From positions 15,983 through 79,982 of the forward strand of contig CAZGXN010000004.1 of the NCBI GenBank assembly GCA_964530135.1: a stretch of DNA of 64,000 nucleotides, in the 5' to 3' direction. Positions 9,350-61,739 of the stretch are shown here, piece by piece. The translations under genes were made by a program, and so were the position numbers. Within the stretch, counting starts at the first letter, position 1. The number at the start of each line of letters is the position of its first letter. This DNA is from an uncultured Bdellovibrionales bacterium. Lineage in GTDB: Bacteria; Patescibacteriota; Minisyncoccia; Moranbacterales; UBA1568. The notes under the pieces are model-generated. The model was not told the origin of the DNA. It did not search any database and worked only from the letters and a program-made list of their open reading frames with translations.

Positions 9350-9378
9350 TTGACAGAGTGGTACGCATTCCCTACAAT
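9350..9378 (+). promoter_or_regulatory. sigma70 promoter TTGACA-17-TACAAT
   Basis: TTGACA at 9350-9355 and TACAAT at 9373-9378. It sits inside the 5' extension of the long proS ORF, so the ATG at 9401 is the likely real start. Confidence 0.5.
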
Positions 9379-9400
9379 AAAGAAAAAGTATAAGTTTTGT

Positions 9401-10666
9401 ATGCGTCAATCTACTCTCTTCACGAAAACTTCCAAAACAGCTCCTTCGGACGAAGTGAGCCGGAATGCAGCCCTCCTTATTCGCGCGGGATTTGTCCATA
9501 AAGAAATGGCAGGTGTCTATGCGTATCTACCGCTCGGTTTGCGCGTCTTGGAAAAGATCAAATCAATTGTTCGAGATGAAATGAATCAACTGGGCTGTCA
9601 GGAACTCATCATGACGAGTCTCCAGCGTAAGGAGTTATGGGAGAAGACTGATCGTTGGGATGATGCGAATGTCGATGTTTGGTTCAAGTCAAAGTTGAAA
9701 AACGGTACGGAGGTTGGTTTTGGATGGTCACATGAGGAGCAGATTACCGAAATGATGAAAAACCATCTTTCGAGTTACCGTGATGTACCAATAGCGGTGT
9801 ATCAGTTTCAAACGAAACTGCGTAATGAGCTTCGAGCGAAGTCTGGTATCATGCGGGGCCGAGAGTTTGTGATGAAGGATCTCTATTCTTACAATGAAAA
9901 TGAAGTTGCACATCAGCAATTTTACACCGCTGTAACTCAGGCATATCTTCGGGTTTTTGACCGAGTTGGTTTGGGGGAAGTAACATTTCTCACCTTTGCC
10001 TCTGGCGGGGCATTTACGCAATTTAGTCACGAGTTTCAAACCCTCACTGATGCCGGTGAGGATGTCATCTACCTGCATCGAGAGAAAAAAATAGCGATCA
10101 ATGAAGAGGTGCTGAATGATGCCGTGCTTACTCAACTCGGTGTTGAGCGTGATCAGTTAGAGCGAGTCAAAGCAGCTGAGGTAGGTAATATTTTTAGTTT
10201 TGGGAGCACAAAAAGTGAACAACTCGGGTTGTATTTCAAAGACCAGGCGGGAGTCTCAAAACCGGTCATTCTTGGGTCTTACGGTATCGGGATCACTCGT
10301 CTTATGGGAGTGCTCGTTGAAATATTTTCAGATGATCGTGGTCTCGTGTGGCCAAAATCAGTGGCACCATTTCAGGTCCATCTTCTCTCTCTTGGTGCTG
10401 ACGAAAAAGCAGCTGAGGTTTATGCTGCCTTGGTTCGGGAAGGTATCGACGTTCTTTACGACGATCGGGATGCGAGTGTCGGCGAAAAATTTGCTACGGC
10501 TGATCTACTTGGTATTCCCTGCCGAATTGCGATTGGCAAGCGTTCGCTGGAGAGCGGTCTGGCTGAGGTAAAAATGCGGACGGAGGAAACATCACAGATG
10601 GTAGCTTTTCATCAACTAGGTACTCTGATACGAGAACAGTATGCCGACAAAACAGTATCCCGCTAG
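9401..10666 (+). CDS. proS: prolyl-tRNA synthetase (short form, no editing domain)
   Basis: Class II aaRS with a ProRS-like N-terminus (RQSTLFTKTSKTAPSDEVSRNAALLIRAGFV, GVYAYLPLGLRVLEKI). The anticodon-binding domain is C-terminal. Confidence 0.85.
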   Translation: MRQSTLFTKTSKTAPSDEVSRNAALLIRAGFVHKEMAGVYAYLPLGLRVLEKIKSIVRDEMNQLGCQELIMTSLQRKELWEKTDRWDDANVDVWFKSKLKNGTEVGFGWSHEEQITEMMKNHLSSYRDVPIAVYQFQTKLRNELRAKSGIMRGREFVMKDLYSYNENEVAHQQFYTAVTQAYLRVFDRVGLGEVTFLTFASGGAFTQFSHEFQTLTDAGEDVIYLHREKKIAINEEVLNDAVLTQLGVERDQLERVKAAEVGNIFSFGSTKSEQLGLYFKDQAGVSKPVILGSYGIGITRLMGVLVEIFSDDRGLVWPKSVAPFQVHLLSLGADEKAAEVYAALVREGIDVLYDDRDASVGEKFATADLLGIPCRIAIGKRSLESGLAEVKMRTEETSQMVAFHQLGTLIREQYADKTVSR

Positions 10667-11370: not shown

Positions 11371-12330
11371 ATGGGGGTGGAAAAGGTTCTCATTGCTGAG
11401 CCACATGGATTTTGTGCCGGTGTTGCACGGGCAGTGAAAGCCGTCGAGGACACACTCGCGCTGTGTGGACCACCTGTTTATGTAAAGCATGAAATCGTCC
11501 ATAATAAGCATGTCGTTAATGATATTACGAAAAAAGGTGCCATCACGGTCGAGCATCTTTCGGAAGTACCGAACGGGTCGGTGGTTATCTTTTCTGCTCA
11601 TGGTTCACCGCGCTCTCATTATGCCGAGGCGAAGCAGCGTCGCTTACAGCTGATAGACGCCACTTGTCCGTTGGTGACGAAAGTCCATCTTGAGGTGTTG
11701 CGTTTTGTCAAAGAAGGATATCAGATTATCTACATCGGTCATCGGGGACATATCGAGGGAGTGGGTGTTTTGGGTGAAGTACCGGGGGTTGATATTCCTT
11801 TAGTTGAGACGGTCGCAGATGTCGCTGCTCTTGATATTCCGGCGGCTGAAAAAATGGTGTATCTGACCCAGACAACGCTTGCGGTAGATGAAACGCGCAC
11901 AATTATTGCTGCACTTCAAGAAAAATATCCGCATATTATTGCTCCGCCTTTGGAGGATATTTGCTATGCGACAACGAATCGTCAGGAAGCTGTTCGCCAA
12001 CTTGCCCAGATAGCCCCAGTCGTTATTGTGGTTGGTTCACCCACATCATCCAATTCCAATCGTCTGCGTGAAACAGCTGAGCGTTCCGGCGCTCGGGCGT
12101 ATCTCGTTGATGATGTGAGTGAGCTCAATCCAGATTGGTTTACGGATGTTCGAGTGGTTGGTGTTACGGGTGGTGCGAGTGCGCCGGAATATCGGATGCA
12201 AGAAATTGTTACCTTTTTTCATAACCAAGGGGCTCAGGTTGAACACTTTTCTGTGCGGAAGGAAACCTTGTTTTTTTCCGAACCGGTAGAACTTATGCAG
12301 ATTCGCCGTGAACGGACACTTTCTGTATGA
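11371..12330 (+). CDS. ispH: 4-hydroxy-3-methylbut-2-enyl diphosphate reductase
   Basis: IspH/LytB signature AEPHGFCAGVARAV and conserved Cys/His positions. Confidence 0.85.
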   Translation: MGVEKVLIAEPHGFCAGVARAVKAVEDTLALCGPPVYVKHEIVHNKHVVNDITKKGAITVEHLSEVPNGSVVIFSAHGSPRSHYAEAKQRRLQLIDATCPLVTKVHLEVLRFVKEGYQIIYIGHRGHIEGVGVLGEVPGVDIPLVETVADVAALDIPAAEKMVYLTQTTLAVDETRTIIAALQEKYPHIIAPPLEDICYATTNRQEAVRQLAQIAPVVIVVGSPTSSNSNRLRETAERSGARAYLVDDVSELNPDWFTDVRVVGVTGGASAPEYRMQEIVTFFHNQGAQVEHFSVRKETLFFSEPVELMQIRRERTLSV

Positions 12331-13442
12331 AACTCGCTCTCCAAGTGAGTGATCTTGATCACACGCGTATTGACGGAACGCGGATCTATATCGCTGAACT
12401 CCTCAAGCGTTTTGGAGAAATCGCGCCCGAAACTGAGTTTTGGCTTTATCATAAGAACGCGTTTAACCCGGCTCTGGCTCCCCACGAGCGTTCGAATTAT
12501 GTAGAGCGCACGGTGCCATTTCCGTACGCGTGGATGCAAACTCGCTTTGCTTGGGAGATGTTTCAGCATCCGCCAGACCGACTTTTTCTCCCGATTCAGG
12601 CGGCGCCAATTTTCTTACCCCGTGGCCTACAGGTGACTGCTACGATTCATGATCTCGCTTTTCGACGATTTCCTGAGACTTTTCCGCGTCACCATCTTTG
12701 GAAACTTAACTTTATGCTTGAAACCGTGATTCGACAGGCCGATCGACTCATCGCTGTTTCTGCATCGACCAAGCGTGATCTCCTCGAATTTTTTCCCGAG
12801 ATTGAAGCGCAGCGTGTCAGGGTCATTCATCACGGTTTTGACGGGAATTTTTTTGGATCACCATTGGATCCCACTGATCTCTCGGTTCGACTGCATTCCT
12901 TTGCCCTTCGTCCTAAAACATATGTCCTTTCGGTCGGTGCACTGCAGCCAAGAAAAAATTTAGTTCGACTCATTGAGGCATTTGAAAAAGCAAAACGGAG
13001 CGCACCCGAGATGCGACTTGTATTGACGGGTGAACCAGCCTGGCTTTCTCAATCGATTTTTGCAGCGCGAGAAAAAAGCCGTTTCAGAGAGGATATTGTT
13101 TTTACGGGGAGTGTCGACTCGGCTGATCTCCGCGCCCTCTATCAGGGTGCGCGAGTATTTGCATTTCCATCACTGTATGAGGGTTTTGGGCTTCCGATTC
13201 TCGAAGCATTTGCAGCTGGAACACCCGTGCTCACGGGGGATAATTCTAGTTTGCGGGAGGTTGCAGGTGAGGGTGCGCTGTATGCTGATGTAACAAACCC
13301 TTCCGATATCAGTGAAAAACTTTATCAACTTTGGAGCGATGAGATACTCGGTCATGAGCTTCGAGGGTATGCGCAAAATGAGCTCAAGCGTTTTTCTTGG
13401 GATCAGACTGCAGCAAAAACCCTTGAAGCTATCATCGGTTAG
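12327..13442 (+). CDS. glycosyltransferase family 4 (GT1 fold)
   Basis: The EX7E region EGFGLPILEAFAAGTPVL is present. ATGA overlap with ispH. Confidence 0.8.
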   Translation: MKLALQVSDLDHTRIDGTRIYIAELLKRFGEIAPETEFWLYHKNAFNPALAPHERSNYVERTVPFPYAWMQTRFAWEMFQHPPDRLFLPIQAAPIFLPRGLQVTATIHDLAFRRFPETFPRHHLWKLNFMLETVIRQADRLIAVSASTKRDLLEFFPEIEAQRVRVIHHGFDGNFFGSPLDPTDLSVRLHSFALRPKTYVLSVGALQPRKNLVRLIEAFEKAKRSAPEMRLVLTGEPAWLSQSIFAAREKSRFREDIVFTGSVDSADLRALYQGARVFAFPSLYEGFGLPILEAFAAGTPVLTGDNSSLREVAGEGALYADVTNPSDISEKLYQLWSDEILGHELRGYAQNELKRFSWDQTAAKTLEAIIG

Positions 13443-27598: not shown

Positions 27599-28762
27599 AT
27601 GATGCAGCGTATTGTTAACCCTCTCCTCCTCACCTTTATTCTCGTGTCGCTTTCGGGCTGCACACTTTCTCCCCCGAAGATTGGGGGTGGAGAAAAAAGC
27701 GATACAACGGCGTTTGAAACACAGGCACTTCCTGGGAGTGTGTGGCGTTCGGATGATGGCGGAAAGACTTTTGTGCCAAAAATTTTTGTCGATGAGAAAC
27801 GAAAGCTCACCAAAGCGGATGTTCTCGATATCTCTTTTCTCTTGCGCGAGGATACACGTGAAAGAGCGAATGAGCTTCGGCGTACTCCAGATGTTTATGT
27901 CGGAACGGTGGATGACATGATTTTTAAGACCGAGGATGGTGCTGAAGTGTGGCAGCCTGTCAATTTTCCACCAAATAAAGTCTATAGTTTCATCGCTTCC
28001 CGCCGTAGTCTTGACCGGATGTATGCGACCGGTGTCGTTGGTGAGCGAGGAAAGATATTTCGGACCACTGATGGAGGAACAACCTGGGCAGATGTCTACA
28101 GCGAGCCTGGGACAGGTTCGTCGCTCCCTTCTCTTGCGGAACATCCGACAGACATCAATCTCCTCTTTGCTGGAACGAGTACAGGTACTGTTGTAAAGAG
28201 TACAGATGGGGGGGATACCTGGAAGAATGTTGGTACGAAAGTGAATGGGCCAATCACCACTATCGCATTTGATGCCAAGGATAGGAATATCATGTACTTG
28301 TTGGCGTTTAATTCAAAAATATATATTTCACTGAATGCGGGAGAAACATGGAATGACTGGGAAAGTATTCAGCAGGAGGAGCGGAAAAAAAATCCCAACG
28401 CTCCCTATGTGAACACGGTCGCCTTGCAGGGGTTTGCTTCGTTGGTGGCTGATCCAAATATCTCTGGAACATTGTATGCGGGCACCAAGAGCGGTCTCTA
28501 TCGAAGTCGTGACTTTGGTAAGGGTTGGGAAAAAGTGAATATTATCGAGAGTGCTGAAAAATTCCAGATTCGTTCCTTTGCAGTGAATCCGAAAAATTCT
28601 AATGAGATCATCTTTGTGGCTGGTCGGGCGCTCTACAAGTCGCTGAATGCCGGCGAAACCTGGTCAGTCCATATGCTCAATGTTGATCGCGAAGTATCTG
28701 TCATCACCTATGATCCGGCGTATCCAGAAGTCATCTATCTCGGTCTCCGGAAGACGAAATAA
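27599..28762 (+). CDS. BNR/Asp-box repeat beta-propeller lipoprotein (Ycf48-like)
   Basis: Signal peptide with lipobox LSGC. Repeated S/T-x-D-G-G-x-T-W motifs: DDGGKTF, TDGGTTWA, TDGGDTWKNV, NAGETWND, NAGETWSV. Confidence 0.6.
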   Translation: MMQRIVNPLLLTFILVSLSGCTLSPPKIGGGEKSDTTAFETQALPGSVWRSDDGGKTFVPKIFVDEKRKLTKADVLDISFLLREDTRERANELRRTPDVYVGTVDDMIFKTEDGAEVWQPVNFPPNKVYSFIASRRSLDRMYATGVVGERGKIFRTTDGGTTWADVYSEPGTGSSLPSLAEHPTDINLLFAGTSTGTVVKSTDGGDTWKNVGTKVNGPITTIAFDAKDRNIMYLLAFNSKIYISLNAGETWNDWESIQQEERKKNPNAPYVNTVALQGFASLVADPNISGTLYAGTKSGLYRSRDFGKGWEKVNIIESAEKFQIRSFAVNPKNSNEIIFVAGRALYKSLNAGETWSVHMLNVDREVSVITYDPAYPEVIYLGLRKTK

Positions 28763-30601: not shown

Positions 30602-31249
30602 ATGCCGATGACGAATATTTTGGCTCTATTGTGGGAAAAGAAAGGAAGCGTGTTCCTTTTTGGATTTTTTATTGCGGCAGCAGTATTCTTCACTGAAACA
30701 CTTATTTCTCCGCGTTATGCTGTACGCACAGATTTCATGGTGCTCCAGTCATCTGGCTCACAAGATTTCTATACCCTTTTTAAATCGTCCGAATATTTGG
30801 GGAAAATCCTCTCCGAATCAATGTACAGTGAACGGTTCATCAATGCTGTTATTGAAACGGGGAAGGTAAGCGAGCGGGGATTTCTACCAACGGATAAGCG
30901 TGCCCGACTGAAGGCGTGGCGCTCGATGGTGAGTGTAGAAAAGAATATCGAGCTCGGTATACTCTCGGTAACGGTGAAGTCCGATACTGAACGGGAAGCG
31001 AGTAAGACGATGGAAGCGATATCCGATGTACTTATCAATCGCAATCATGAATTCCGTGGAGGTGAAGAGAAGGCGGTTGAGGTTCGCATCCTCTCGGGAC
31101 CGATTGCTGATCGCAATCCGACGCCAAAAGAACTCGTAATACTATCGCTCCTCGGATTTTTTGCGGGCGTGTTTGTTTACGCTATGTGGTTGGCGCTGAA
31201 GATGCTTGATCGAACGGGGACGAAAAGTACTTCGTTCGCTCAGCGATAA
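30602..31249 (+). CDS. Wzz/PCP-like polysaccharide chain-length determinant (small form)
   Basis: N-terminal TM helix, periplasmic segment, C-terminal TM helix (LVILSLLGFFAGVFVYAMWL). This is the Wzz topology. Confidence 0.45.
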   Translation: MPMTNILALLWEKKGSVFLFGFFIAAAVFFTETLISPRYAVRTDFMVLQSSGSQDFYTLFKSSEYLGKILSESMYSERFINAVIETGKVSERGFLPTDKRARLKAWRSMVSVEKNIELGILSVTVKSDTEREASKTMEAISDVLINRNHEFRGGEEKAVEVRILSGPIADRNPTPKELVILSLLGFFAGVFVYAMWLALKMLDRTGTKSTSFAQR

Positions 31250-31418
31250 GTTTTTTTGAGAAGAGGCTTTGACCATGTCCTGCAGCCGCAGGCAGGCGCA
31301 AGCCTCCTCTGGATTGTTTCTCTTTCGAGGGGGATGTTCCAGAGGATAGAATCGAAAAAGTTCGTTTAAAACTTACTGCTTACAAATCTCAAGCTCTCAA
31401 CAGTTCAAGGAGTTCGTC

Positions 31419-32270
31419 ATGCGAAGAAAAATCTTGCTCGCTGCAAGTATGGCTCTGACATTCCTCGCCGGCTGTTCGTCTCTTCCTCGCGAAAGCGGGT
31501 ACGAAGTGCGGACAGTTCAAGCCGAGGGGCGCCAGGAGCCCTGGCAGAACCGCGCGATTCGTCGCGAAGTGTTCAGTCCCGGTGGAGTGGCGGTCGTCTA
31601 TGTCAGATTGCCGCAACCCATCCCTGACCGGTGGAAGAAGGAATTCGTTGATCCGGCCCGTACCTATGAAGTGCGGGATGGTCAGCGCAAAGTCCGGAAG
31701 CCCCTGTTCCGTGAAGTGTTTCGTGCGATTGCGTTTATGGACGCTGGGGAAACTCAGACCTATGACGCGGTCCTCGATCGGGAGGTGCGAGGCTTCAGTG
31801 TCTTCGTGCCGCTCACGGATGCCGAGCGCATCCGAGGTAAGTCGCTCCTCATTCTGTCTTCGGACGGGAAGTGGGGGATGACAGTCCTCGGCGTGCTTGT
31901 GGAGTTCGAAAAGGGGCTCGCCCCCGATCGGCTTCCGATTGGATTCTTCACGACTCATCCGTCCACTGTGACGCAAGTGATTCGTTTAGATCCGATCGAC
32001 AATGAGCATGCCCGCCTGGCCCTTGATGGTGTGGCGGCAGCGTTTCCGGTGCAGTTTTCGCTTCGGGACAAGAATGGATCATATGTCGGGAAGTCCGACA
32101 TCGCTACCGTCCTCGCCGAGTTTACCTCGGTCGATGGCGTGGCAGATCGGCTGATCTCATGCACGAGCCTCAAGCTCGGTCTGGAGTCAGCATCGGCACT
32201 CCCTATTGTCGCGACACTGTACAGTTATCAAGCTGTGCGTGCCGTGGTGAAGGAGGATTGTTTGAAGTAG
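31419..32270 (+). CDS. lipoprotein, hypothetical (GC-rich island gene A)
   Basis: Signal peptide with lipobox LAGC. SD CAAGGAG lies 8 nt upstream. Composition is GC-rich. No known motif. Confidence 0.5.
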   Translation: MRRKILLAASMALTFLAGCSSLPRESGYEVRTVQAEGRQEPWQNRAIRREVFSPGGVAVVYVRLPQPIPDRWKKEFVDPARTYEVRDGQRKVRKPLFREVFRAIAFMDAGETQTYDAVLDREVRGFSVFVPLTDAERIRGKSLLILSSDGKWGMTVLGVLVEFEKGLAPDRLPIGFFTTHPSTVTQVIRLDPIDNEHARLALDGVAAAFPVQFSLRDKNGSYVGKSDIATVLAEFTSVDGVADRLISCTSLKLGLESASALPIVATLYSYQAVRAVVKEDCLK

Positions 32271-32293
32271 AGTGAAAGAAAGGAGAGCTCACC

Positions 32294-32410
32294 ATGAGCG
32301 ACCCAGTTGTCTTGAAACTGTCCAGGTATCAAGCGTGGGTCGCCTCAATCGACCCACCTTTATTCCTGAGTTCCCTCATTGAATTCATGGCTGAAGGAGG
32401 CCGAACATGA
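32294..32410 (+). CDS. small protein (38 aa), hypothetical, translationally coupled to LysM gene
   Basis: AAGGAG at 32279-84 then ATG 32294. Product is MSDPVVLKLSRYQAWVASIDPPLFLSSLIEFMAEGGRT. Its 3' end carries the GAAGGAGG SD of the next gene and the ATGA stop/start overlap at 32407-32410. Confidence 0.25.
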   Translation: MSDPVVLKLSRYQAWVASIDPPLFLSSLIEFMAEGGRT

Positions 32411-34308
32411 CTGATCGAATCCCTCAAACCGGCACTCCTATCCTGGATGCCAAATCAAAACGTCCTGTCTGGCATTGGATCATTGGAGTCCTACTCCTCT
32501 GTTTCACGGCCTGGATTATCTGGGACATTAACTTCAATCAGGAGAAGCAACCCGTTCACTCAGTATCGCAGTCTGTCTTTGTACCGATTGCTGCTACTCC
32601 GAGTGCTTCGGCACCGGAAACAGTGGCTTCGACGGGTACGCCTGTACCTGTTGCACCGCCCAAGACCTACACAGTTGAACAGGGTGACTGGCTCTCGCTG
32701 GTTTTCCCGAACAATTGGAAGGCGGTGTGCGACCTGAACGCCAAAATCCTGAAGAAGGGTTGCAGCCACATTGTCGCCGGCCAAGAGTTGCAGCTCCCCG
32801 TCGGCGTCGAGCCAACGGAAAAGAGTGCTCGCGCCGCGAAGCCCAAAATGGTTAAGGCCCCCAGGCCCCAAACCACCACGGCTCCGATCGCTGCCACGCC
32901 CAAGACAAATGCTGCAGGCGAAATCCTGTATCGTCGCGTCGGCACAGCACCCTTGAATGGTTGCGGGAAGCGCGACATCGCTGACATCAGCCGCGATGCA
33001 TGGGAAGTGCTCGGTCTGTCGAAGGACGACCAGGCATGGCTCCAGCTGAACGCTGATCTCGCTAACGGTCCACGCATCAACATCACGGCCGCCGAAGGTT
33101 TGGCGAAGCTCGATACTGATACCCGCTTGGAACAAGTTACCTTCTGCCGCAAGGGCACGGTGGTCTCTCGGGGTCCCATGCGTACTGCGTGGGATGCCGA
33201 TCAAGCGGTCTATGGTGAGCGTTTCGTACTCCCGTCGGGCAAGGTGCTCGTCTGGATGCGGAATTGCTTTAACTGGGTCATCCTCCCCGAGGAGAAGAAG
33301 GAGCCACCTGCTCCTCCTCCGCCTCCCGCGGAGTCCCCAGTCGTGCCAACTCCGGCACCACCTACGCCGATACCCGAACCAAGTGCTTCCGTTCCGGTGG
33401 CCGAAGCGCCCAAGGGAATCTGTGACCGATTTGATCCGCACGCGGTCATCGGTCAGGAGTACGAGCCCAGGCATGACGGTGGCGATCGAGCTGATTCGAG
33501 CTATCTGTCGGCCGCACTGTTCTGCACCTGGTACGACGAAAAGCGTCAAGGGACTCACGGCCTCGGTCTGAGTCTGACTGCTTCTACTTGGAGCGGTACC
33601 GTCAATCAGCGTGCAGGAAAGTATCAGGGCAATATGCATCTGGTCGGACCGGCATACGAGTTCATCTCGGATAACGGCTGGGACGCAACCGTCTCAGTCC
33701 CGATGGTGGGCCGTCTCCACGAAAAGTTCAGTCAGGACCAGTACCGTTCACAGCGGGACTTCAGCCTGATCGGTCTTTCGGCCGGCTACAACAACTACGA
33801 ACGCCGCCTCCGCGGTGAAAAGTGGTTTCCCGAAACGCAAGTCTTTGGGACCTGGGCCAAGCCGCTTTCACGCACGGTCGCACATAGCTGGGAAGGTCAG
33901 CCGATTGCCGATACCGCGGAGCTTTCCCGGTTCGACACCTACCTCAATTTGGGGGTGCGTCAATGGCTGTACGAGACCGATGAATCGCTAGTGCTGCCGT
34001 ACGCACAGCTCGGCTATTTCCTCGAGTCCCCAGGATCTGAATCTCTCAGTGTTCGTATGGGCATCTCTGACCCCGCGAGAATCGTGGGTGTCGGAGTGGG
34101 GTTCGATCATGATCTGGAGCGTGGTGGTGATGTTGCGGCCTGGGGCTGGTGGCTGGATGTCGCGAAAGGCATCCAAGTCGGGCGGTCCAAATACCGTAAA
34201 CATCAGATCCTCGTCGATGCAGAGCGTCGCGGGATTACGGTCGAGGAAAACCGTCGAGGCTACATCGAAAGCATCCGCTTCGGTGAACCCAAGCCTGATA
34301 AGCAGTAA
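32407..34308 (+). CDS. LysM domain membrane-anchored protein with Pro-rich linker (island gene B)
   Basis: TM helix at residues 22-40. LysM-like YTVEQGDWLSLVF…IVAGQELQLP. Linker PPAPPPPPAESPVVPTPAPPTPIPEP. Unknown C-terminal domain of about 300 aa. Confidence 0.55.
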   Translation: MTDRIPQTGTPILDAKSKRPVWHWIIGVLLLCFTAWIIWDINFNQEKQPVHSVSQSVFVPIAATPSASAPETVASTGTPVPVAPPKTYTVEQGDWLSLVFPNNWKAVCDLNAKILKKGCSHIVAGQELQLPVGVEPTEKSARAAKPKMVKAPRPQTTTAPIAATPKTNAAGEILYRRVGTAPLNGCGKRDIADISRDAWEVLGLSKDDQAWLQLNADLANGPRINITAAEGLAKLDTDTRLEQVTFCRKGTVVSRGPMRTAWDADQAVYGERFVLPSGKVLVWMRNCFNWVILPEEKKEPPAPPPPPAESPVVPTPAPPTPIPEPSASVPVAEAPKGICDRFDPHAVIGQEYEPRHDGGDRADSSYLSAALFCTWYDEKRQGTHGLGLSLTASTWSGTVNQRAGKYQGNMHLVGPAYEFISDNGWDATVSVPMVGRLHEKFSQDQYRSQRDFSLIGLSAGYNNYERRLRGEKWFPETQVFGTWAKPLSRTVAHSWEGQPIADTAELSRFDTYLNLGVRQWLYETDESLVLPYAQLGYFLESPGSESLSVRMGISDPARIVGVGVGFDHDLERGGDVAAWGWWLDVAKGIQVGRSKYRKHQILVDAERRGITVEENRRGYIESIRFGEPKPDKQ

Positions 34309-34335
34309 GTCCAAAGTCGGGGGATTCTCCCGCAG

Positions 34336-34370
34336 GGCGGCGTCGAGCACATTCGACCCGCCTTTTTCTT
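34336..34370 (+). terminator. intrinsic terminator
   Basis: GGCGG-c-GTCGA gcacat TCGAC-CCGCC hairpin followed by TTTTTCTTTG. Confidence 0.55.
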
Positions 34371-34531
34371 TGCTTACAACTCTACATAATTTTATTGATG
34401 TCTTATCTCGGTTATTTTATTGGGGTTGACCCGGTTTAGAAAAAACTTTAGAAATTTAAGTGTGGCTTTCGAGAAGCTTATCGGTTAATTTTTTATGATT
34501 TTCCTTTTCAGGCAAGCCCTTTCTAGCGGGG

Positions 34532-34560
34532 TTGACAAAAACCAGATTCCCCCCTAGTAT
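34532..34560 (+). promoter_or_regulatory. sigma70 promoter TTGACA-17-TAGTAT
   Basis: TTGACA at 34532-37 and TAGTAT at 34555-60, about 100 nt upstream of island gene C. Confidence 0.5.
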
Positions 34561-34661
34561 GAGGAGTCATCTTTCTGTCCGGCATTTCCCGGCAGGGGAA
34601 TGGCGAACTCACTTCTTTCCCAACCTCTTTCCACTACAGCCTCAAAGGAGGGGCTTGCATC

Positions 34662-35390
34662 ATGAAGACTCGCTTCATTACTTTTTTCTGGGCGTGCGCT
34701 ACGCTCATCACCCTGCCGAGCATTGTGCTCGCTCAGGCCACCAAGACCCTGGCTGTTCAGGGATATACCGACTCGGCTGGCAATACGCTGCCAGGCGGTG
34801 ATACCCGAATGACCGTCACTTCTGACGGCAAGACGACGACCATGCGGCTGGCCAACTTGTACGCTTACGGTGAAGCCGGCACACGGCCGGACGAGAATGG
34901 CAAGCGCGAGGCCTGGTATGGTGCCAATAAGGTGTACTTCGCCGGTGGCACTGTCTATGCCATGAAGCTCGGCAATGATTGGCGCGGCAGCCGTACGGCG
35001 GCCTCAGTCGATCTGAAGGCTGACAATGGGCTGGCTATCTTGGCTCAGGGCAAGATCGGCGACAATGAAGTTACGCTGACCTTCCCGTCGCGCAAGGCAG
35101 CGGCGAATGTCAAGTGGGACTGCCAGCCGCTCAATTACTTGCTCGTCAAAGCGGATGGCAAGCGCGCCTGGCTTGGCCACCCGGGCTGGGCGACGTCGAA
35201 CACAGCGTCAAGTATTGGGGACTTCACCGTTCTCGCGGACAATGACAAGCGGTTTCCGGCCCAAGCCGTCTGCTACGACGCCAATGGCCAAGTGGTCAGG
35301 TTGACGCCGGCGATGCGCGCCGAGCTGGCCAAGGTCATCCAGCCCCCGGCTGGTGCGAAGGAAGCAACTGCCCAGGCCAACGAGCAGTAA
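34662..35390 (+). CDS. secreted protein, hypothetical (island gene C)
   Basis: SD AAGGAGG. Signal peptide MKTRFITFFWACATLITLPSIVLAQA. No known domain. Confidence 0.5.
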   Translation: MKTRFITFFWACATLITLPSIVLAQATKTLAVQGYTDSAGNTLPGGDTRMTVTSDGKTTTMRLANLYAYGEAGTRPDENGKREAWYGANKVYFAGGTVYAMKLGNDWRGSRTAASVDLKADNGLAILAQGKIGDNEVTLTFPSRKAAANVKWDCQPLNYLLVKADGKRAWLGHPGWATSNTASSIGDFTVLADNDKRFPAQAVCYDANGQVVRLTPAMRAELAKVIQPPAGAKEATAQANEQ

Positions 35391-35414
35391 ATCAACTGTC
35401 TTCGCGGCCCACAC

Positions 35415-35461
35415 GGGCCCCCATCGAGCGTAATGCGTTCACCGGGGGCCCGATTTTTTTT
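35415..35461 (+). terminator. intrinsic terminator
   Basis: Perfect 8-bp GGGCCCCC/GGGGGCCC stem followed by T8. Confidence 0.6.
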
Positions 35462-35540
35462 ACGCAATAAGATTTTAAATAGTCGTTCATTAGAGTTTAA
35501 GAATGGCTTGTATAAAGCTTAAAATGTTGTTATCTTTGTG

Positions 35541-35569
35541 TTGACAGAATAGTAAATTTATAGTAGACT
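35541..35569 (+). promoter_or_regulatory. sigma70 promoter TTGACA-17-TAGACT
   Basis: TTGACA at 35541-46. The TATAGT/TAGACT region is 12-17 nt downstream. It is upstream of island gene D. Confidence 0.4.
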
Positions 35570-35652
35570 CGGGAGTCAATTCTGGGCTTGAAAAAGTCCG
35601 GCATTGGCGGATTTTTCACCCGTCCCTTTCCAATCTGAATAAGGAGATTGCC

Positions 35653-36213
35653 ATGCAATCCAAGTCTTTCGCGTTTCCCCATCGCCGTTTCGTCATCTCG
35701 CTTCTCTTTGCCTTTCTCATCGCGGCTGCGTTTGCGCTCGTCTCCAAGACGGCTCAGGCGCAGACCGTCGCCGGCTATCCCACCCAGGGCAGTTCAGCCA
35801 TCACGAGTGTCGTCTCCAAGAGCGCCGGCCAAGCCGAGATCACCATCACCGGCGTCGCGCTGAAGTCGGGCCTGTCCTACTGCCTTATCGGTGTCGGTCA
35901 CGGCAACTGGTACGGCAGTGCTACCCGGGTGCAGCTCGACAAGATCGGCTGCGCCCAGCCCGTCGGCGGCAAGGTCGTTGTCCCGATTCGTCTCGAGTCC
36001 AAGCGCTATGAGGTGAATGGTGCGACAATCGGCTATGTCCCGATCGGGGTGGACGCTGAAGGCAAGATTGCCACTTGGCCACCCAAGCCGACGGGCTCAC
36101 TGCCGTTCGAACGGTCGAATGGCACCAAAGACGACATCGTCGCTGTCCATTGGACGGCCGGCGGTATCGCGCAGCTCGCCACGGCCCAACAGGCCATGAC
36201 CATCAACGACTAG
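35653..36213 (+). CDS. secreted protein, hypothetical (island gene D)
   Basis: SD AAGGAG. Signal peptide …LIAAAFALVSKTAQAQ. No known domain. Confidence 0.5.
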   Translation: MQSKSFAFPHRRFVISLLFAFLIAAAFALVSKTAQAQTVAGYPTQGSSAITSVVSKSAGQAEITITGVALKSGLSYCLIGVGHGNWYGSATRVQLDKIGCAQPVGGKVVVPIRLESKRYEVNGATIGYVPIGVDAEGKIATWPPKPTGSLPFERSNGTKDDIVAVHWTAGGIAQLATAQQAMTIND

Positions 36214-36223
36214 GAGGTCGAAA

Positions 36224-36970
36224 TTGAACAAGCAATTCGCTGCCGCGCTCGTAGCACTTTCTCTGTCGGGGTTCGCCCTGGCTCAGAACTGCACGCGGGA
36301 CATGCCCGATCGTGTCATCCCACAGGCGGGCGATAAGGGTATCGCCATGTTCGCAGAAGAAACCGTCAAGGAAGAATACCGTCCTCCGAAGAAGATGGCC
36401 GAGCGCCAGTTCGACCATGCGGTTGGCATGTGGAACGCTGTGACGGCGTACCCCTGCGATCGTGGCCGGCCAGCAAACATCGAGTTCCAGAGCTTCGAAA
36501 TCGTCCGCCTCGATCCATCGACGGGCAAGCTCATCCCTGAGCTCACACTCCGGTTCGATGGCACGGGCGGCTCATCATTCGATGGTGGTGGCCAATGGCA
36601 CCGCTCGCCCGAGTGGTTCATCTCGGGCCAGCCCGAGCGCCAGCCGACGGTGGCCAGCACCCGGAGTAGCGTCTTCATGGTCGACCTCAAGTCGATCCCG
36701 AAGGCGATCGTCCACATGTGGACGAGTCGTACCCCGGCCATGGCAGGCCAGGTCTATGGCATTCGAGCGAAGGTCCGTGTTACTGGCGATGCACGTCTGC
36801 AGCTCGCCATGGACTATTGGAAGGGTCGCGACAGCGCCTACAACGGCTGGACGCCAGGTTGTACTGGGTCCAACAACTGTGAAGCCTGGCTCGGGGACTG
36901 GTACGGCGACACGGGTGGCAAGTTCGTCACCATCGTCTCGCCGCGCACGCTCCTCGGCAACTCCCATTAG
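36224..36970 (+). CDS. secreted Cys-containing protein, hypothetical (island gene E, paralog 1)
   Basis: TTG start 6 nt after SD AGGAGG and 11 nt after the gene D stop. Signal peptide. It shares conserved blocks with the downstream paralog (VTAYPCDRG; VRVTGDARLQLAMDYW; GWTPGCTGSNNCEAWLGDW). Confidence 0.5.
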   Translation: MNKQFAAALVALSLSGFALAQNCTRDMPDRVIPQAGDKGIAMFAEETVKEEYRPPKKMAERQFDHAVGMWNAVTAYPCDRGRPANIEFQSFEIVRLDPSTGKLIPELTLRFDGTGGSSFDGGGQWHRSPEWFISGQPERQPTVASTRSSVFMVDLKSIPKAIVHMWTSRTPAMAGQVYGIRAKVRVTGDARLQLAMDYWKGRDSAYNGWTPGCTGSNNCEAWLGDWYGDTGGKFVTIVSPRTLLGNSH

Positions 36971-36996
36971 CTAGCGGCAACGCCACACCCCTCAAG

Positions 36997-37039
36997 GCCC
37001 CAATGGATTTCACATCCGGCGGGGCATTTTCTTTTTTTA
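36997..37039 (+). terminator. intrinsic terminator (copy 1 of duplicated module)
   Basis: GCCCCAATGGAT ttcac ATCCGGCGGGGC imperfect hairpin followed by ATTTTCTTTTTTT. Confidence 0.45.
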
Positions 37040-37060
37040 AAGTGAACAGGATTTTAACCA

Positions 37061-37089
37061 TTGACAAAAGAATTATTTTATACTATTAT
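37061..37089 (+). promoter_or_regulatory. sigma70 promoter TTGACA-17-TATTAT
   Basis: TTGACA at 37061-66 and TATTAT at 37084-89, upstream of paralog 2. Confidence 0.5.
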
Positions 37090-37162
37090 CATATGTCATT
37101 TCCAGACACTTCCGTTTGGAAGTGACATCCCTTTTGCCCCTTACCAACAAGGAGTCATCGCC

Positions 37163-37933
37163 ATGCAGGCACACTGGAAACGACATTTTTTCACCCTCTT
37201 TATCGCTTTGGGAATGACCTCAGCTATGGCCCAGTCTCTGTACGAGGTCTGTCCGAGTCCGGTGCCAACTGCCAATCCAACCGTGCCGCAAGGTGTGGCG
37301 GCTGGTGATCCGGCATTCTTCGCGAGTGAAACTATCGCGCCGGAGTATCGGCCGTCGCAACTGATGGCCGACAACGGCTTCAACTACCTCGTCGGCATGC
37401 TGAACATTGTGACCGTGTATCCATGCGATCGCGGCAAAGCGGCGACGGTAGAATTGAAAGCGCTCCGCGTCATCCGCAAGGACCCAAACAGCGGGTATGA
37501 GACAGTCGAACAACTCGTAACATTCGGCAATGGATGGAATCTGCCCAATGGCCTGGTTTACAAGACCTTTTATCGCCAGCCGGGTTGGTTCACGAGTGGT
37601 GAGCCAACGATCCAGCCGACGCTCGTCGGAATCGGCAAACAGATTTATACGGTCAATGTGAAATCTATTCCGAAGGGTATCTACCATGCGTGGACTGCTC
37701 CGCGTGTGGCTGCTGTACCAGGCCATCCGTACTTCGTCGAAGTCGTGGTCCGTGTGACCGGCGACGCGCGCCTGCAGCTCGGTATGGACTATTGGCGTGG
37801 TAGCACCTCAGACTACACTGGTTGGACGCCAGGTTGTACTGGGTCCAACAACTGTCAGGCCTGGCTTTCCAATTGGCTCGGCGACACCCGCGGCAAGTTC
37901 GTCACCTGGCGTGCACCAAGCATGATGTTTTAG
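37163..37933 (+). CDS. secreted Cys-containing protein, hypothetical (island gene E', paralog 2)
   Basis: SD AAGGAG at 37149-54 then ATG 37163. Signal peptide FFTLFIALGMTSAMAQS. Conserved blocks VTVYPCDRGK, VRVTGDARLQLGMDYW and GWTPGCTGSNNCQAWLSNW are shared with paralog 1. A 32-nt stretch is identical between the copies. Confidence 0.5.
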   Translation: MQAHWKRHFFTLFIALGMTSAMAQSLYEVCPSPVPTANPTVPQGVAAGDPAFFASETIAPEYRPSQLMADNGFNYLVGMLNIVTVYPCDRGKAATVELKALRVIRKDPNSGYETVEQLVTFGNGWNLPNGLVYKTFYRQPGWFTSGEPTIQPTLVGIGKQIYTVNVKSIPKGIYHAWTAPRVAAVPGHPYFVEVVVRVTGDARLQLGMDYWRGSTSDYTGWTPGCTGSNNCQAWLSNWLGDTRGKFVTWRAPSMMF

Positions 37934-37955
37934 CGGCAACGCCGCACCTCTCAAG

Positions 37956-37999
37956 GCCCCAATGGATTCATTTTCCGCTGGGGCTTCTTCTTTTCTATT
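37956..37999. terminator. intrinsic terminator (copy 2), probably bidirectional
   Basis: GCCCCAATGG…CCGCTGGGGC hairpin followed by TTCTTCTTTTCT. It overlaps the stop of the convergent minus-strand gene at 37998. Confidence 0.4.
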
Positions 38000-39398
38000 A
38001 AAAGTGATCGCGGAGCTCGCTTGGAAGCGATGTGTGATAGAGTGACAGGAATCCGCCAATGACGACGGCAAGTATCCATTGGACGGGTGTATTTTTGAAG
38101 ACATTATCAGAGAAACTCGCGATTATCAGGGTGAGCAAAAGAAGGAGCAAAAGTGTGGCCATATTTTTCAGACTGTGACTGGGAGTGAGGCGGCGTACAT
38201 TGATCACAGGAAAGGCCAAAGTCAGGAGGTAGAACACAAAGACGGACAATCCCACGATACCTCCATCGACATAGAATTTCACAAAGTCATTGTGTGATTC
38301 ATTGGAGCCAAATCGTCCACCTCGCAGTTGTTCGGCAGAAACGCGGAAAGTATCTACACCGCTTCCGAGCCACACTCTTTCCTCGAGATTGGTCTTGAGT
38401 ATCATGTCATGCCAGAGGTTTTGTCGCCAGACGATTGAAGAGTCGGGAGTCGGATGGAATGCCTCGCTGACGCGCTCATTCACGGCGGGGATAAATGTCA
38501 TGAGAACAATCGGGAGGAGGATGAGTGGCAAGAGGAGGAAGCGATAGCGCCAGATGGCAATGAGTGTCGCGAAAACAAAGAACGCAATCCAAGCAATGCG
38601 GGCATATGTGAGGATAAGCGTGATGAGTACGAGTCCAAGATAGAGACTTGTTAAGAGGCGGGCCTGGTCTTTTCGGGCATAGACTAGGAGGTAGATACTG
38701 GCGACTGCAGCGACAGTGAACAGGTAGAGACTGAAGACATTTGGGTGGCTAAAAGTGCCAAAGATACGGATGGCTGAAACATTTTCATCAACGAGACCAA
38801 TCCCAAAGAGGAACTGATAGAGTCCGAAGACTATCGGAAGGAGGCTGGATATGAAAATTGCTCTGAGCAAGGTGCGATAGTCGCGATAGCGTTCAACTGA
38901 AGCGTATGCGATGAAGCCGATACTGAAGAGATCAAAGATCCGGAGTACTTCTTGGGCGGATGAGGTTGGATCGATAGAGTAGGTGAGTGTGCTGAGTCCC
39001 CAGAAAATGAGGAGGCCGTACGGTAAGAGGAGTGGGTAACGACCCAGTGGTCGCAGATGAAAGAGAACAAAGAGCATACCCAGGCCCGCAATGCCGAGAC
39101 CGAGGATCTGGGAAAGGGAAACGACACGATCGAAAAGTGAGAAAGTGATGAATTGCGAGGAGTAGTCGAGTGACATGCGGATGACAATGAGCGTAGCGAG
39201 CAGGAAGAGGGGATTGTGGAAAAGACCGATGACCGCTGCGACACTCAGCAAAGCAATAACCGGCAGGAAAAGCGAGACGCCGACCAGAGCGGCGCAAAAC
39301 ATCAGGACAAAGAAAACAGTACCTGCAATGAGATAGGTGCGAGGGTCAGTCCAGAATGATTGTTCGGGGATGGTAGGGATTACTCGGGTTGTTTCCAT
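37998..39398 (-). CDS. O-antigen ligase/polymerase-like membrane protein (Wzy_C family)
   Basis: 466 aa with more than 10 TM helices and a periplasmic loop carrying SHNDFVKFYVDGGIVGL, the H-N-x(n)-E/D-x-G pattern of WaaL/Wzy_C. Confidence 0.55.
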   Translation of the reverse strand: METTRVIPTIPEQSFWTDPRTYLIAGTVFFVLMFCAALVGVSLFLPVIALLSVAAVIGLFHNPLFLLATLIVIRMSLDYSSQFITFSLFDRVVSLSQILGLGIAGLGMLFVLFHLRPLGRYPLLLPYGLLIFWGLSTLTYSIDPTSSAQEVLRIFDLFSIGFIAYASVERYRDYRTLLRAIFISSLLPIVFGLYQFLFGIGLVDENVSAIRIFGTFSHPNVFSLYLFTVAAVASIYLLVYARKDQARLLTSLYLGLVLITLILTYARIAWIAFFVFATLIAIWRYRFLLLPLILLPIVLMTFIPAVNERVSEAFHPTPDSSIVWRQNLWHDMILKTNLEERVWLGSGVDTFRVSAEQLRGGRFGSNESHNDFVKFYVDGGIVGLSVFVFYLLTLAFPVINVRRLTPSHSLKNMATLLLLLLLTLIIASFSDNVFKNTPVQWILAVVIGGFLSLYHTSLPSELRDHF

Positions 39399-40039
39399 AT
39401 AAGAGTGAAGGTCATAGTCCAGCCGAGAAAACGGTTGCGGATAATTTCAAATTCTTTCACGCCGGCGGTGATGGCCAAGGAACGCAGTTCGTGTTCTGAG
39501 AGGAGGTGCATATAGTCTCCAGCAGCCCAGCTTTTACCGAGTATTGTTAGGATACGGTCAAAGGCTGGTTTTGAAAGCAGGAGGTGAAGAAGTGGGATGC
39601 GCGTATGGACTTCGATGGGGAAGAGTCGATTTGGCGTGGTAATATATCCACGTTTTCCGACACGGTACAGTTCGCGAAGAAAGGCAATCTGTTTGTCTCG
39701 CGGGCCTACATGTTCAATAACAGCATTGGAATAGGCGATGTCAAAGGCGTGATCGGCAAAGGGAAGTCGAGTACCGTCGCTGGTGATTGTTGTGACAGCT
39801 GGATACCGGCGCTTGAATTCAGTGAAATCCGTTTCCACTCCGACGGCGGTGATGTTTTCTGGGTGCACATAATGCCGTTCGAGAAAATTGTCGGATTCGG
39901 AGTACTCGAGGGTATTGACGCCAACATCGATAATGCGATCCGTTGGCCCGGGGGTCATAAGCACGAGAAATTGTGTCCATTTTTTGGTTCGGCTTCTTTT
40001 CGAGATATTGTCAGCGAGTGTTTCAGTGAGACGAGCCAT
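39380..40039 (-). CDS. class I SAM-dependent methyltransferase
   Basis: Motif I IIDVGVNTLEYSE and post-I acidic residue. AFDIAYSNAVIEHV (Methyltransf_11/23-like). Start taken at MARLTETLAD. Confidence 0.6.
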   Translation of the reverse strand: MARLTETLADNISKRSRTKKWTQFLVLMTPGPTDRIIDVGVNTLEYSESDNFLERHYVHPENITAVGVETDFTEFKRRYPAVTTITSDGTRLPFADHAFDIAYSNAVIEHVGPRDKQIAFLRELYRVGKRGYITTPNRLFPIEVHTRIPLLHLLLSKPAFDRILTILGKSWAAGDYMHLLSEHELRSLAITAGVKEFEIIRNRFLGWTMTFTLIWKQPE

Positions 40040-40079
40040 AGGGATTATGAGGGAGAGGGAAAACGAGTATACTGAATCT

Positions 40080-41270
40080 ATGCGTGTGCTGCTTATCAAC
40101 AAATTTCATTATCAGAAGGGTGGCGCCGAACGAGCCTATTTTGATACTGCTCATATTTTAGCAGAAAAAGGCCACTCAGTCGCTTTTTTCTCGATGCAAC
40201 ATCCAAATAATCTCAATACCCCCTGGAGCCAATTTTTTGTCTCTTCAGTCGACTATCATGATGCGGATGCTGGATTTTGGTCGAAACTTCGGGCAGCTGG
40301 CCGCATTCTCTGGAATCACGAAGCCGCGAAAAAACTCGAAGTACTCATTGAGACATTCAAGCCTGAGGTCGCTCACCTTCATAACATCTATCATCAGCTC
40401 TCACCATCGATCATTTGGATGTTGCGAAAACACCGAGTGCGGATTGTGATGACACTCCATGATTATAAGCTCATCTCGCCGAATTATAGTCTCTTGGTTC
40501 GGGGAAAAATTTGGGATCATACGAGCGGACTTTTAGCGATAGTTGATCGGGCGGTTCAGGATTCCTATCTGAAGAGCTTGGTATGTGCAATTGAAAAATG
40601 GTTTCATGCTTTGATTGGTAGTTTTGGAAAGGTTGACGCTTTCATCGCCCCATCTCGTTTCCTGATTGAAAAATTTCATACGGCTGGTTTCCCATATCCA
40701 ATTTTGCACGTCGTCCAACCGATTCAACCATTTCCAGTTGTACCGGAAAATTCAAGCGGAGCATATTTCCTCTACATTGGCCGTTTGTCGAAAGAAAAAG
40801 GAGTAGCGACACTCATTGATGCCTGGGAATTACTCCAAGGTGCGGCAATGCTCAAGATCATCGGATCTGGTCCTGAAGAGTCAGTTCTCCGTAAACGGGC
40901 AAAAAGTATCCCAGGGATTGAATTCTTGGGTTATCAGACGGGCGAGGTCTGGGAACAGGTGCTTCAGGGATCCAGGGCGCTTATCATACCATCGATCTGG
41001 TATGAGAATATGCCGTATGTCGTTCTCGAAGCGCTCTCGCGTGGAAAGCCTGTCATTGCCACTCGGCTCGGAGGTATACCGGAACGGATTCGCGAGGGTG
41101 AAAATGGCTGGCTCTTTGAAGCTGGACAACCCAAAGATCTCGCCCGGGCGATACACAAATGTCTTCTTTATCCGGATCCAAATCAACTCGCAGTAACTGC
41201 GTATGACAGCGTCGCGGATGCTCAGCCAGAGGCATACTATACAGCCCTCATGAAAGTCTATCAAGCTTGA
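40080..41270 (+). CDS. glycosyltransferase family 4
   Basis: GRLSKEKGV and ENMPYVVLEALSRGKPVIATRLGGIPE (EX7E). Start at MRVLLINKF. It is divergent from the methyltransferase. Confidence 0.8.
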   Translation: MRVLLINKFHYQKGGAERAYFDTAHILAEKGHSVAFFSMQHPNNLNTPWSQFFVSSVDYHDADAGFWSKLRAAGRILWNHEAAKKLEVLIETFKPEVAHLHNIYHQLSPSIIWMLRKHRVRIVMTLHDYKLISPNYSLLVRGKIWDHTSGLLAIVDRAVQDSYLKSLVCAIEKWFHALIGSFGKVDAFIAPSRFLIEKFHTAGFPYPILHVVQPIQPFPVVPENSSGAYFLYIGRLSKEKGVATLIDAWELLQGAAMLKIIGSGPEESVLRKRAKSIPGIEFLGYQTGEVWEQVLQGSRALIIPSIWYENMPYVVLEALSRGKPVIATRLGGIPERIREGENGWLFEAGQPKDLARAIHKCLLYPDPNQLAVTAYDSVADAQPEAYYTALMKVYQA

Positions 41271-61531: not shown

Positions 61532-61536
61532 CTACT

Positions 61537-61737: not shown

Positions 61738-61739
61738 CT

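Follow-up and report, generated by a model that had tools for sequence, protein, structure and literature searches.

Positions 31.4-38.0 kb of the window analyzed here, a 64,000-nucleotide (nt) stretch of contig CAZGXN010000004.1 from the assembly GCA_964530135.1, carry seven open reading frames (ORFs), denoted g1 to g7, that are richer in G and C than their neighbors and lie between a wzz-like gene and a gene of the Wzy_C type. The question raised by this locus is whether it is a piece of foreign DNA, as an earlier note made from the sequence had suggested, or a native component of the genome, and what its exported products might do. We conclude with high confidence that the cluster is an ancestral, vertically inherited locus and not a foreign island. 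On balance, it is probably a highly expressed, clade-specific surface or contact module of the Moraniibacteriota (Parcubacteria group, candidate phyla radiation (CPR)), organized around g3, an envelope-spanning protein that combines LysM with a predicted beta-barrel; a function in contact with a partner is a more tentative proposal.

The genomic neighborhoods of the relatives are the key to the first part of the question. Full-length homologs of g3 (n = 48) show 32-76% identity, and their informative source names are Moraniibacteriota or Moranbacteria, apart from one labeled Undibacterium sp. Thirteen related loci span both flanks (L001, L002, L004-L006, L008, L010-L014, L016, and L018), the compared contexts including the complete 1.2-Mb genome CP064975.1 (L001), and a metagenome scan contributed 5 further loci, mostly short. 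In all 13, down to 32% g3 identity, a g3-type gene and genes for exported proteins are found between the wzz-like and Wzy_C genes. The gene order is constant, namely, serS, BNR lipoprotein, frr, rseP, wzz-like gene, g1-type lipoprotein, short ORF, and g3-type gene, followed by small exported proteins, Wzy_C and a methyltransferase gene (both on the minus strand), and GT4. Two members of a wider barrel family, whose similarity to g3 is confined to the stretch from the end of its middle domain through the barrel, occupy the same site as well. No relative was found in which the wzz-like gene lies directly beside Wzy_C without the cluster; homolog searches yielded no cluster homologs outside the clade, and the IMG/VR viral contigs and plasmids that were searched contained no relatives of the cluster. 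A search of the borders detected no att-like direct repeats, no integrase, transposase, or other mobility ORF is present at 30.4-38.6 kb, and there is no tRNA gene at the borders, the nearest to the cluster being tRNA-Lys at 27450.

The earlier note had correctly placed the segment between Wzz-like and O-antigen-ligase-like genes. However, its interpretation of the segment as a horizontally acquired insert in a surface-polysaccharide locus is contradicted by the orthologs found in the same position in all of these related genomes, none of which has the two flanking genes adjacent, and the proposed high-GC actinobacterial donor has no support, the searches having yielded no homolog outside the Moranbacteria clade. 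What remains of horizontal transfer is an exchange of parts between Moranbacteria lineages, not an acquisition from a foreign donor.

The compositional contrast itself is real. Whereas the whole window has about 48% GC, the seven 1-kb windows at 31-38 kb reach a GC content of 0.531-0.617, compared to 0.45-0.51 in the neighboring 10 kb. The GC content at third codon positions (GC3) of the six long cluster genes (g1 and g3-g7) is 0.632-0.775, with a mean of 0.70, compared to a mean of 0.479 (standard deviation 0.057, maximum 0.63) for the 46 other long ORFs of the window. At second codon positions, GC is also raised, to 0.45-0.51 against about 0.40 elsewhere, because the cluster proteins are rich in Ala, Gly, Pro, Thr, and Trp. 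Across 31-38 kb, GC skew drops to about 0, and the tetranucleotide usage of the cluster correlates with that of the rest of the window at 0.768, compared to 0.88-0.94 for other 6.75-kb segments. The codon shift is chiefly toward codons ending in C, in both two-fold and four-fold families, and also toward AAG: in the cluster versus the rest, the frequencies are 0.71 versus 0.31 for TTC, 0.72 versus 0.44 for ATC, 0.48 versus 0.22 for GGC, and 0.82 versus 0.40 for AAG. Thus, the sliding GC and per-gene GC3 profiles bear out the elevated GC and GC3 described in the earlier note, the tetranucleotide comparison that it had suggested reveals a deviation of the cluster, and the spacers inside the cluster are AT-rich, as it had stated (GC 0.42-0.51).

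A comparison of 17 loci demonstrates that high GC and GC3 belong to the locus itself and that genome GC drifts around it. Over these loci, GC is 0.566-0.616 in the cluster versus 0.452-0.592 in the flanks; the GC3 of g3 is confined to 0.63-0.78 (standard deviation 0.036) and correlates with flank GC3 at r = 0.35, whereas flank GC3 spans 0.44-0.76 (standard deviation 0.089). In L001 and L014, which come from higher-GC genomes, the cluster is no richer than the flanks, and the orthologs of g4, at 46-75% identity, all have a GC3 of 0.71-0.92. Because cluster GC is steady whatever the background, a compositional island is visible only in low-GC members such as the window. Two features make up the composition, namely, a preference for C- and G-ending codons and a high content of Ala, Gly, Pro, Thr, and Trp in the encoded proteins. 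The composition probably stems from codon selection acting on highly expressed genes, from gene flow among members of the clade, or from both; the shift to C-ending codons, together with strong translation and transcription signals, fits the first of these. The locus also carries a methodological caution, namely, that a sharp compositional island can be ancestral.

Within the conserved framework, parts of the locus are replaced. Compared to relatives, the cluster proteins are 50-80% identical and the flank proteins 70-87%. Between L005 and L009, identity is 82% for RseP and 94% for the g3 middle domain and falls to 28% for the barrel; the L005 barrel groups with that of L012 (51%), the RseP identity between these two loci being 59%. 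Likewise, L001 and L010 share 87% identity in RseP and 89% in the g3 middle domain, compared to 36% in the barrel. Sliding nucleotide identity in the same two pairs is 75-90% in rseP and the wzz-like gene, 35-45% in g1, about 80% in the leader upstream of g3, 26-42% at the g3 N-terminus, 85-96% in the middle domain, and 35-48% from the Pro-rich linker on, and it switches abruptly at the segment boundaries. The lipoprotein g1 is hypervariable, with only 25% identity in L010, where the flanks are at 82-84%, and L010 has different secreted genes downstream. Another of the downstream genes, g7, occurs in L002, L004, and L006 but is missing from L001, whose genome is complete.

These sequence patterns indicate that the barrel and the downstream secreted genes, g6 and g7 included, are swapped as cassettes between Moranbacteria lineages. 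Recombination would occur at conserved anchors, which comprise the leader RNA, the flanks, and the middle domain of g3 as far as the Pro-rich linker, and such turnover is what is expected of exposed specificity determinants. The locus resembles variable surface-antigen loci, such as O-antigen and capsule loci or pilin and tail-fiber cassettes, in its conserved flanks, sharp identity breaks, swapped modules, and composition unlike that of the genome. However, the variable modules here are proteins, namely, the barrel domain and small secreted proteins, rather than glycosyltransferase sets, and the composition, which is uniform throughout the clade, is GC-rich rather than AT-rich.

Such exchange invites the alternative that the composition stems from a shared, recombining Moranbacteria gene pool, the window copy being a relatively recent import from a higher-GC Moranbacterium, and not from codon selection. 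This possibility overlaps with our interpretation and the two are not mutually exclusive. The clear mosaicism, with domain and cassette swaps, fits it, as do the homogeneous cluster GC across backgrounds and the 85-96% nucleotide identity of the g3 middle domain between L001 and L010, given that their rseP genes are 66-88% identical. Nevertheless, the barrel type of the window is common to L001, L002, L006, L007, and L008 at 72-76%, in step with RseP at 82-87%, and because barrel identity tracks RseP identity, there is no sign of a recent barrel swap in the lineage of the window. Furthermore, the retention of a high GC3 by g4 orthologs that have diverged to 46-75% requires a sustained force, and strong codon bias would itself reduce synonymous divergence. 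Taken together, these considerations make the gene-pool origin possible but rather unlikely.

What, then, does the ancestral locus encode? The spacer between g1 and g3 is among the most conserved DNA of the locus, with near-invariant nucleotides in 10 loci, and contains a structured leader RNA of g3 (32280-32411, plus strand), identified by covariation, in which a 38-codon upstream ORF (uORF; g2, 32294-32410) is embedded. RNAalifold pairs segment 1 (GAGCGACCCA, 32296-32305, at the uORF start) with segment 2 (TGGGTCGC, 32333-32343) and segment 3 (TCGACCCACCTT, 32349-32360, containing the anti-Shine-Dalgarno motif CCACCTT) with segment 4 (32392-32403), which is the Shine-Dalgarno (SD) sequence of g3, with a small hairpin in between. 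The consensus comprises 34 pairs, 92.9% paired and 11 of them covarying, a result that none of 500 shuffles reached, whereas slid controls gave 34-52%. For the 2:3 hairpin, which cannot form at the same time, pairing amounts to 98.8%, with 2 covarying pairs, and the variable columns of segment 2 are compensated in both partners. For the window leader alone, the minimum-free-energy fold reproduces the consensus. A covariance model detected a single copy in each of 11 loci out of 14, one of them outside the set from which the model was built, and no Rfam family matches the leader.

The reading frame over the leader is open in all 10 loci and comprises 37-41 codons in 7 of them; in L004, L006, and L008, the longest reading begins farther upstream and has 53-80 codons. 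Where the uORF of the window starts, 9 of the 10 loci have ATG and L004 has GTG. A purine-rich, SD-like AGGAG or GGAG element precedes the uORF, which gene callers also predict, and the uORF stop in the window overlaps the g3 start as ATGA. Thus, the coupled 38-residue peptide of the earlier note holds as an open frame overlapping g3 and turns out to lie inside a two-state leader RNA. Separately, a D-P-P motif is encoded within segment 3 of the window sequence, a tentative lead for possible ribosome stalling.

By analogy with ermC-type attenuation, the anti-SD would sequester the g3 SD in the default fold, and translation of the uORF, or stalling on it, would favor the alternative 2:3 hairpin and free the g3 SD; coupling of the uORF stop to the g3 start may contribute too. 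The likeness to ermC- and cat-type attenuators extends to the four segments with 1:2, 3:4, and alternative 2:3 pairings, the SD in segment 4, the short uORF with its own SD that overlaps segments 1-3, and the covariation supporting both folds. There is, however, no sequence relationship to these attenuators, and the g3 leader governs an envelope protein and not a resistance gene.

The gene thus preceded, g3 (32407-34308, plus strand), encodes a 633-residue envelope protein. A structural model built with AlphaFold2 from the 48-sequence alignment (mean predicted local distance difference test score (pLDDT) 81.9) contains a helix at residues 21-43 (32467-32535), the membrane anchor; a compact alpha/beta domain at residues 166-295 (32902-33291), the conserved globular middle domain, which ends in WMRNCFNW; a disordered Pro-rich spacer at residues 296-340 (33292-33426); twelve long, hairpin-connected strands at residues 341-584 (33427-34158), mostly with a pLDDT of 92-98; and a tail of residues 585-633 (34159-34305) formed by a helix and a short hairpin. 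At about residues 85-130 (32659-32796), a LysM domain was recognized by a profile search, which matches the LysM of LytE at E = 5e-7. A Pfam scan of the single sequence returned no family at E <= 0.1, and Pfam, NCBIfam, and PHROG together gave only weak LysM or endolysin hints. The description of g3 in the earlier note as a membrane-anchored LysM protein with a poly-Pro linker is therefore supported, the LysM by the profile search only.

The middle domain is the most conserved part of g3, with a nearly invariant WMRNCFNW and three nearly invariant Cys residues. A search of 1.84 billion proteins with a profile covering the middle domain, linker, and barrel retrieved 173 representative clusters; in most of them, the match is limited to the C-x-N motif, the Pro-rich linker, and the barrel. 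Of 86 family members scanned, 57 contain a Pfam LysM, and no other domain is recurrent; none matches IAT_beta, and OMP_b-brl was matched by a single member, below threshold. The best structural matches of the barrel are 12-stranded, autotransporter-type barrels and not the 16-18-stranded polysaccharide porins. From the structural model, we consider it likely that the C-terminal domain of g3 folds as a beta-barrel. One protein of the wider barrel family, P0230 (Logan contig, 7.3 kb), shows weak matches to NapC/NirT and MtrC/MtrF-like multiheme cytochromes between LysM and the barrel (E = 1.7e-4 and 1.1e-3) and, judging from these matches, may be a redox-active variant of the LysM-barrel architecture.

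The remaining cluster products, all encoded on the plus strand, are smaller. The first, g1 (31419-32270), is a 283-residue lipoprotein with an LAGC lipobox and, in an alignment of 9 orthologs, a conserved C-terminal D-C; g4 (34662-35390) is a 242-residue signal-peptide protein for which 7 orthologs were aligned, at 46-75% identity; and g5 (35653-36213) is a 186-residue signal-peptide protein with two conserved Cys. Homologs of these three, taken from the genomic sequences of the related loci, were found in this clade only, and searches of Pfam, NCBIfam, PHROG, and PDB profiles gave no match, the PDB sequence-profile search returning chance-level matches only, as it did for g6. When g4, g5, and g6 were compared with hhalign, the signal peptides alone aligned, indicating no relationship.

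By contrast, g6 and g7 form a family. The former (36224-36970, 248 residues) begins with TTG 10 nt past the g5 stop, and the latter (37163-37933, 256 residues) is its paralog, with 45% identity, in agreement with the paralogous pair that the earlier note had recognized among the signal-peptide proteins. The most likely true start of g7 is at 37163, not at 37061. Included in the duplication (36772-37035 and 37747-37994) are the 3' end of the gene and its 3' untranslated region with the terminator (64 nt, 83% identical). From structural modeling, g6 is a putative secreted beta-sandwich (jelly-roll) protein that would resemble lectins or carbohydrate-binding modules, as would its paralog g7, and the family has 29 invariant residues, aromatic and charged ones among them.

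Several features suggest that the cluster is highly expressed. An AAGGAG, AGGAGG, or AAGGAGG site is located 6-10 nt upstream of the start in all seven ORFs; a textbook AAGGAGG had been claimed for every gene, and although the SD sites are indeed strong throughout, the exact heptamer is restricted to g3 and g4. Promoter-like TTGACA-17-TAnnnT sites precede the wzz-like gene (30543, TACTAT), g4 (34532-34560), g5 (35541-35569), and g7 (37061-37089), the scan listing 10 promoter-like sites compared to 4.1±1.9 in shuffles. No such site was found by the scan for g1, g2/g3, or g6, so that the claim of separate promoters for most of the genes stands for g4, g5, and g7. Because g6 begins 10 nt after g5, the two are probably cotranscribed. 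GC-rich hairpins followed by T-runs, read from the sequence, are present downstream of g3 (34336-34368; the scan lists the inner stem, 34342-34357), g4 (about 35414-35461, a 9-bp GC stem with T8), g6, and g7. The strong intrinsic terminators described for most of the genes are thus seen at these four, whereas the total number of terminators in the scan, 11 versus 8.4±2.6, is not above chance.

The translations also confirm the export signals that had been noted, that is, the lipobox of g1, an uncharged signal-anchor of roughly 20 residues in g3, and cleavable-looking signal peptides ending in AQA (g4 and g5), ALA (g6), and AMA (g7). The characterization of the products as exported proteins without a recognizable catalytic family is likewise upheld, LysM being the only family match.

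Putting these elements together, we propose that g3 would span the envelope, with its N-terminal helix in the cytoplasmic membrane and LysM on peptidoglycan, followed by the conserved globular domain. The Pro-rich spacer, at about 45 residues, would be long enough to cross the wall, and the barrel, of the autotransporter or intimin-translocator type with a hydrophobic belt, would reside at the outermost layer. The g1, g4, g5, and g6/g7 proteins would be abundant partners that, together with g3, form a surface structure contacting a partner cell or surface glycans.

This architecture is reminiscent of several known systems. Inverse autotransporters (type Ve, intimin/invasin) similarly have an N-terminal LysM followed by a 12-stranded barrel. 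In g3, however, an uncleaved membrane anchor replaces the signal peptide, a further conserved domain is present along with a long Pro-rich spacer, about 49 residues (585-633) follow the barrel, with no Ig-like or lectin passenger, and an outer membrane and the BAM machinery are thought to be missing from the host lineage. Because there is no IAT_beta match, the anchor is kept, and there is almost no passenger, g3 resembles the inverse autotransporters in architecture without being a member. In classical autotransporters (BrkA, AIDA-I, EspP, Hbp, and NalP), a type Va N-terminal passenger is threaded out through the barrel, whereas the N-terminus of g3 would be fixed in membrane and wall; the identity of g3 to their translocators is 10-15%, with no match to the Pfam Autotransporter family. 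Outer membrane-peptidoglycan tethers of the OmpM/SlpA type, which occur in deep-branching or Terrabacteria lineages (PMC10628300, PMC9388160), share with g3 a wall-binding domain, an extended stalk, and a beta-barrel in the outer layer. Unlike these, g3 has LysM in place of SLH (no SLH match), a Pro-rich spacer in place of the coiled coil, a barrel of 12 strands rather than a larger one, and an added cytoplasmic-membrane anchor; no trimer is indicated and no homology was detected. We also considered the "Pam" pilus operon of CPR (bioRxiv 10.64898/2026.03.03.709456) as an analog, but it is reported predominantly from other classes (Saccharimonadia and Microgenomatia), and its components are not evident in the locus.

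The flanking genes raise the possibility of a different role for the cluster. The wzz-like gene (30602-31249, plus strand), the conserved left anchor, encodes a polysaccharide co-polymerase-like protein with two membrane segments that is 49-82% identical among the related loci, and always lies immediately upstream of the cluster. It matches TIGR01006 over its whole length at E = 3.5e-7, at 29.9 bits versus a curated cut-off of 296, and the Pfam scan gave no Wzz match. On the right, the Wzy_C membrane protein of the O-antigen ligase/polymerase type (37998-39398, minus strand; PF04932, E = 8.3e-15, 55.3 bits versus a gathering cut-off of 31.7) is found in every related locus reaching that far. 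It is followed by a methyltransferase (39380-40102, minus strand; Pfam Methyltransf_11) and a GT4 glycosyltransferase (about 40080-41270, plus strand; Pfam Glycos_transf_1 and Glyco_transf_4), both conserved and syntenic in the relatives. The longest GT4 ORF (39888-41270) shares about 215 nt with the methyltransferase gene, which is encoded on the opposite strand, and a later start near 40080 is indicated by the relatives and Pfam.

Given this setting, the cluster could be the export and anchoring part of the adjacent glycan pathway, in which the g3 barrel would serve as an outer conduit, or as an anchor, for the polymer made by the Wzz-like, Wzy_C, methyltransferase, and GT4 proteins, by analogy with the barrel porins and Wzi of Gram-negative systems, and g6/g7 would hold the polymer on the surface. 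We consider such a role unlikely: the best structural matches of the barrel are of the 12-stranded autotransporter type and not porins, cells expected to have no outer membrane (PMC12102498) do not need a conduit, swapping affects the barrel whereas the glycan genes stay conserved, and the match of the wzz-like gene is far below the family cut-off.

The interpretation of the cluster as a surface module has weak points of its own. The barrel is predicted from an alignment of 48 related sequences, no fold was assigned to g1, g4, or g5, high expression is read from translation and transcription signals and codon usage only, and the cluster products would have to associate physically and reach the surface, where some membrane or layer would have to hold the barrel. 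The main unexplained point is the place for a lipid-facing barrel in the Patescibacteria, a lineage thought to lack an outer membrane (PMC12102498). Among the other genes of the window, no diderm markers were found; typical CPR genes are present, encoding a PrsA-like peptidyl-prolyl isomerase, HtrA-like proteases, DUF5656, DUF4012, and an L,D-transpeptidase. The presumed lack of an outer membrane would also fit a g3 whose barrel prediction is misleading, that is, an ordinary wall-associated LysM protein, involved, for example, in peptidoglycan remodeling or scaffolding, with unrelated neighbors that share a permissive site. Sequence families lend no support to the barrel, given the single, sub-threshold OMP_b-brl match among 86 members, and conservation peaks in the middle domain, not in the barrel; in view of the model of the C-terminal domain, this explanation nonetheless appears improbable. 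Finally, a recent horizontal transfer in which a high-GC donor, for example, an actinobacterial host, contributed the entire 6.7-kb block to an existing polysaccharide locus would account for the raised GC and GC3, the deviant tetranucleotide signature, and the flat GC skew, but is highly implausible in the face of the same-site counterparts in all 13 two-flank loci, the equal cluster composition in genomes of differing GC, the failure of the searches to find homologs outside the clade or in viruses and plasmids, and borders without repeats or mobility genes.

Some further observations concern the genomes and the rest of the window. Several relatives that are GTDB species representatives (L006, L007, L009, L011, and L012) are third-party-annotation (TPA) metagenome-assembled genomes (MAGs) titled "uncultured Bdellovibrionales bacterium" that show the Moranbacteria synteny and the g3 family; the Bdellovibrionales and Undibacterium labels on relatives look like misclassification or mis-binning. 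In the L008 MAG, frameshifts split rseP, g1, and g4 (6418-7559, 9033-9870, and 12139-12893), which are probably assembly errors rather than pseudogenes. Upstream of the cluster, between tRNA-Lys and frr, a BNR/Sortilin-type beta-propeller lipoprotein (27599-28762, lipobox LSGC) is kept in every related locus whose sequence reaches this region. Elsewhere, the window does contain a genuine candidate for foreign DNA, a low-GC block at 61255-63655 (GC 0.38, GC3 0.32-0.37), about 0.4 kb past tRNA-Ala (61255-61328), which encodes a type II restriction enzyme of the Tsp45I type (61740-62534, Pfam E = 1e-120) and an N6/N4 DNA methylase (62540-63655).

Little is known about how the CPR bacteria, or Patescibacteria, build their envelopes and attach to partners, and the majority of their surface proteins are unannotated. 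The barrel family described here is clade-wide and unannotated, with 173 representative clusters and no Pfam family covering it; in the literature on Moranbacteria and CPR envelopes and in the family libraries, we found no description of the locus, the barrel family, or the leader. The candidate for an undescribed surface or host-interaction module put forward in the earlier note remains a good one. The kinds of elements involved, namely, an autotransporter-type barrel, a wall-to-outer-layer tether, a variable surface locus, and an attenuator leader, are already known, and it is the phylogenetic setting that is unexpected.

The leader is a new structured RNA, with covariation backing two alternative folds. 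The LysM-barrel family bears on the monoderm/diderm question for CPR and offers a concrete protein to localize. As a tentative proposal based on the structural model, Moranbacteria might make an outer-membrane-type, 12-stranded barrel tied by a long stalk to their own cytoplasmic membrane and peptidoglycan, which would imply either an unrecognized lipid-containing or barrel-based outer layer, similar to a toga or an OmpM layer, or insertion of the barrel into the membrane of a partner as an attachment or exchange pore. If the barrel does enter a partner membrane, the choice of partner would be set by the cassettes that are swapped, both barrel and lectin-like. In any case, the hypervariable cassette system is a plausible determinant of partner or phage specificity in these bacteria.

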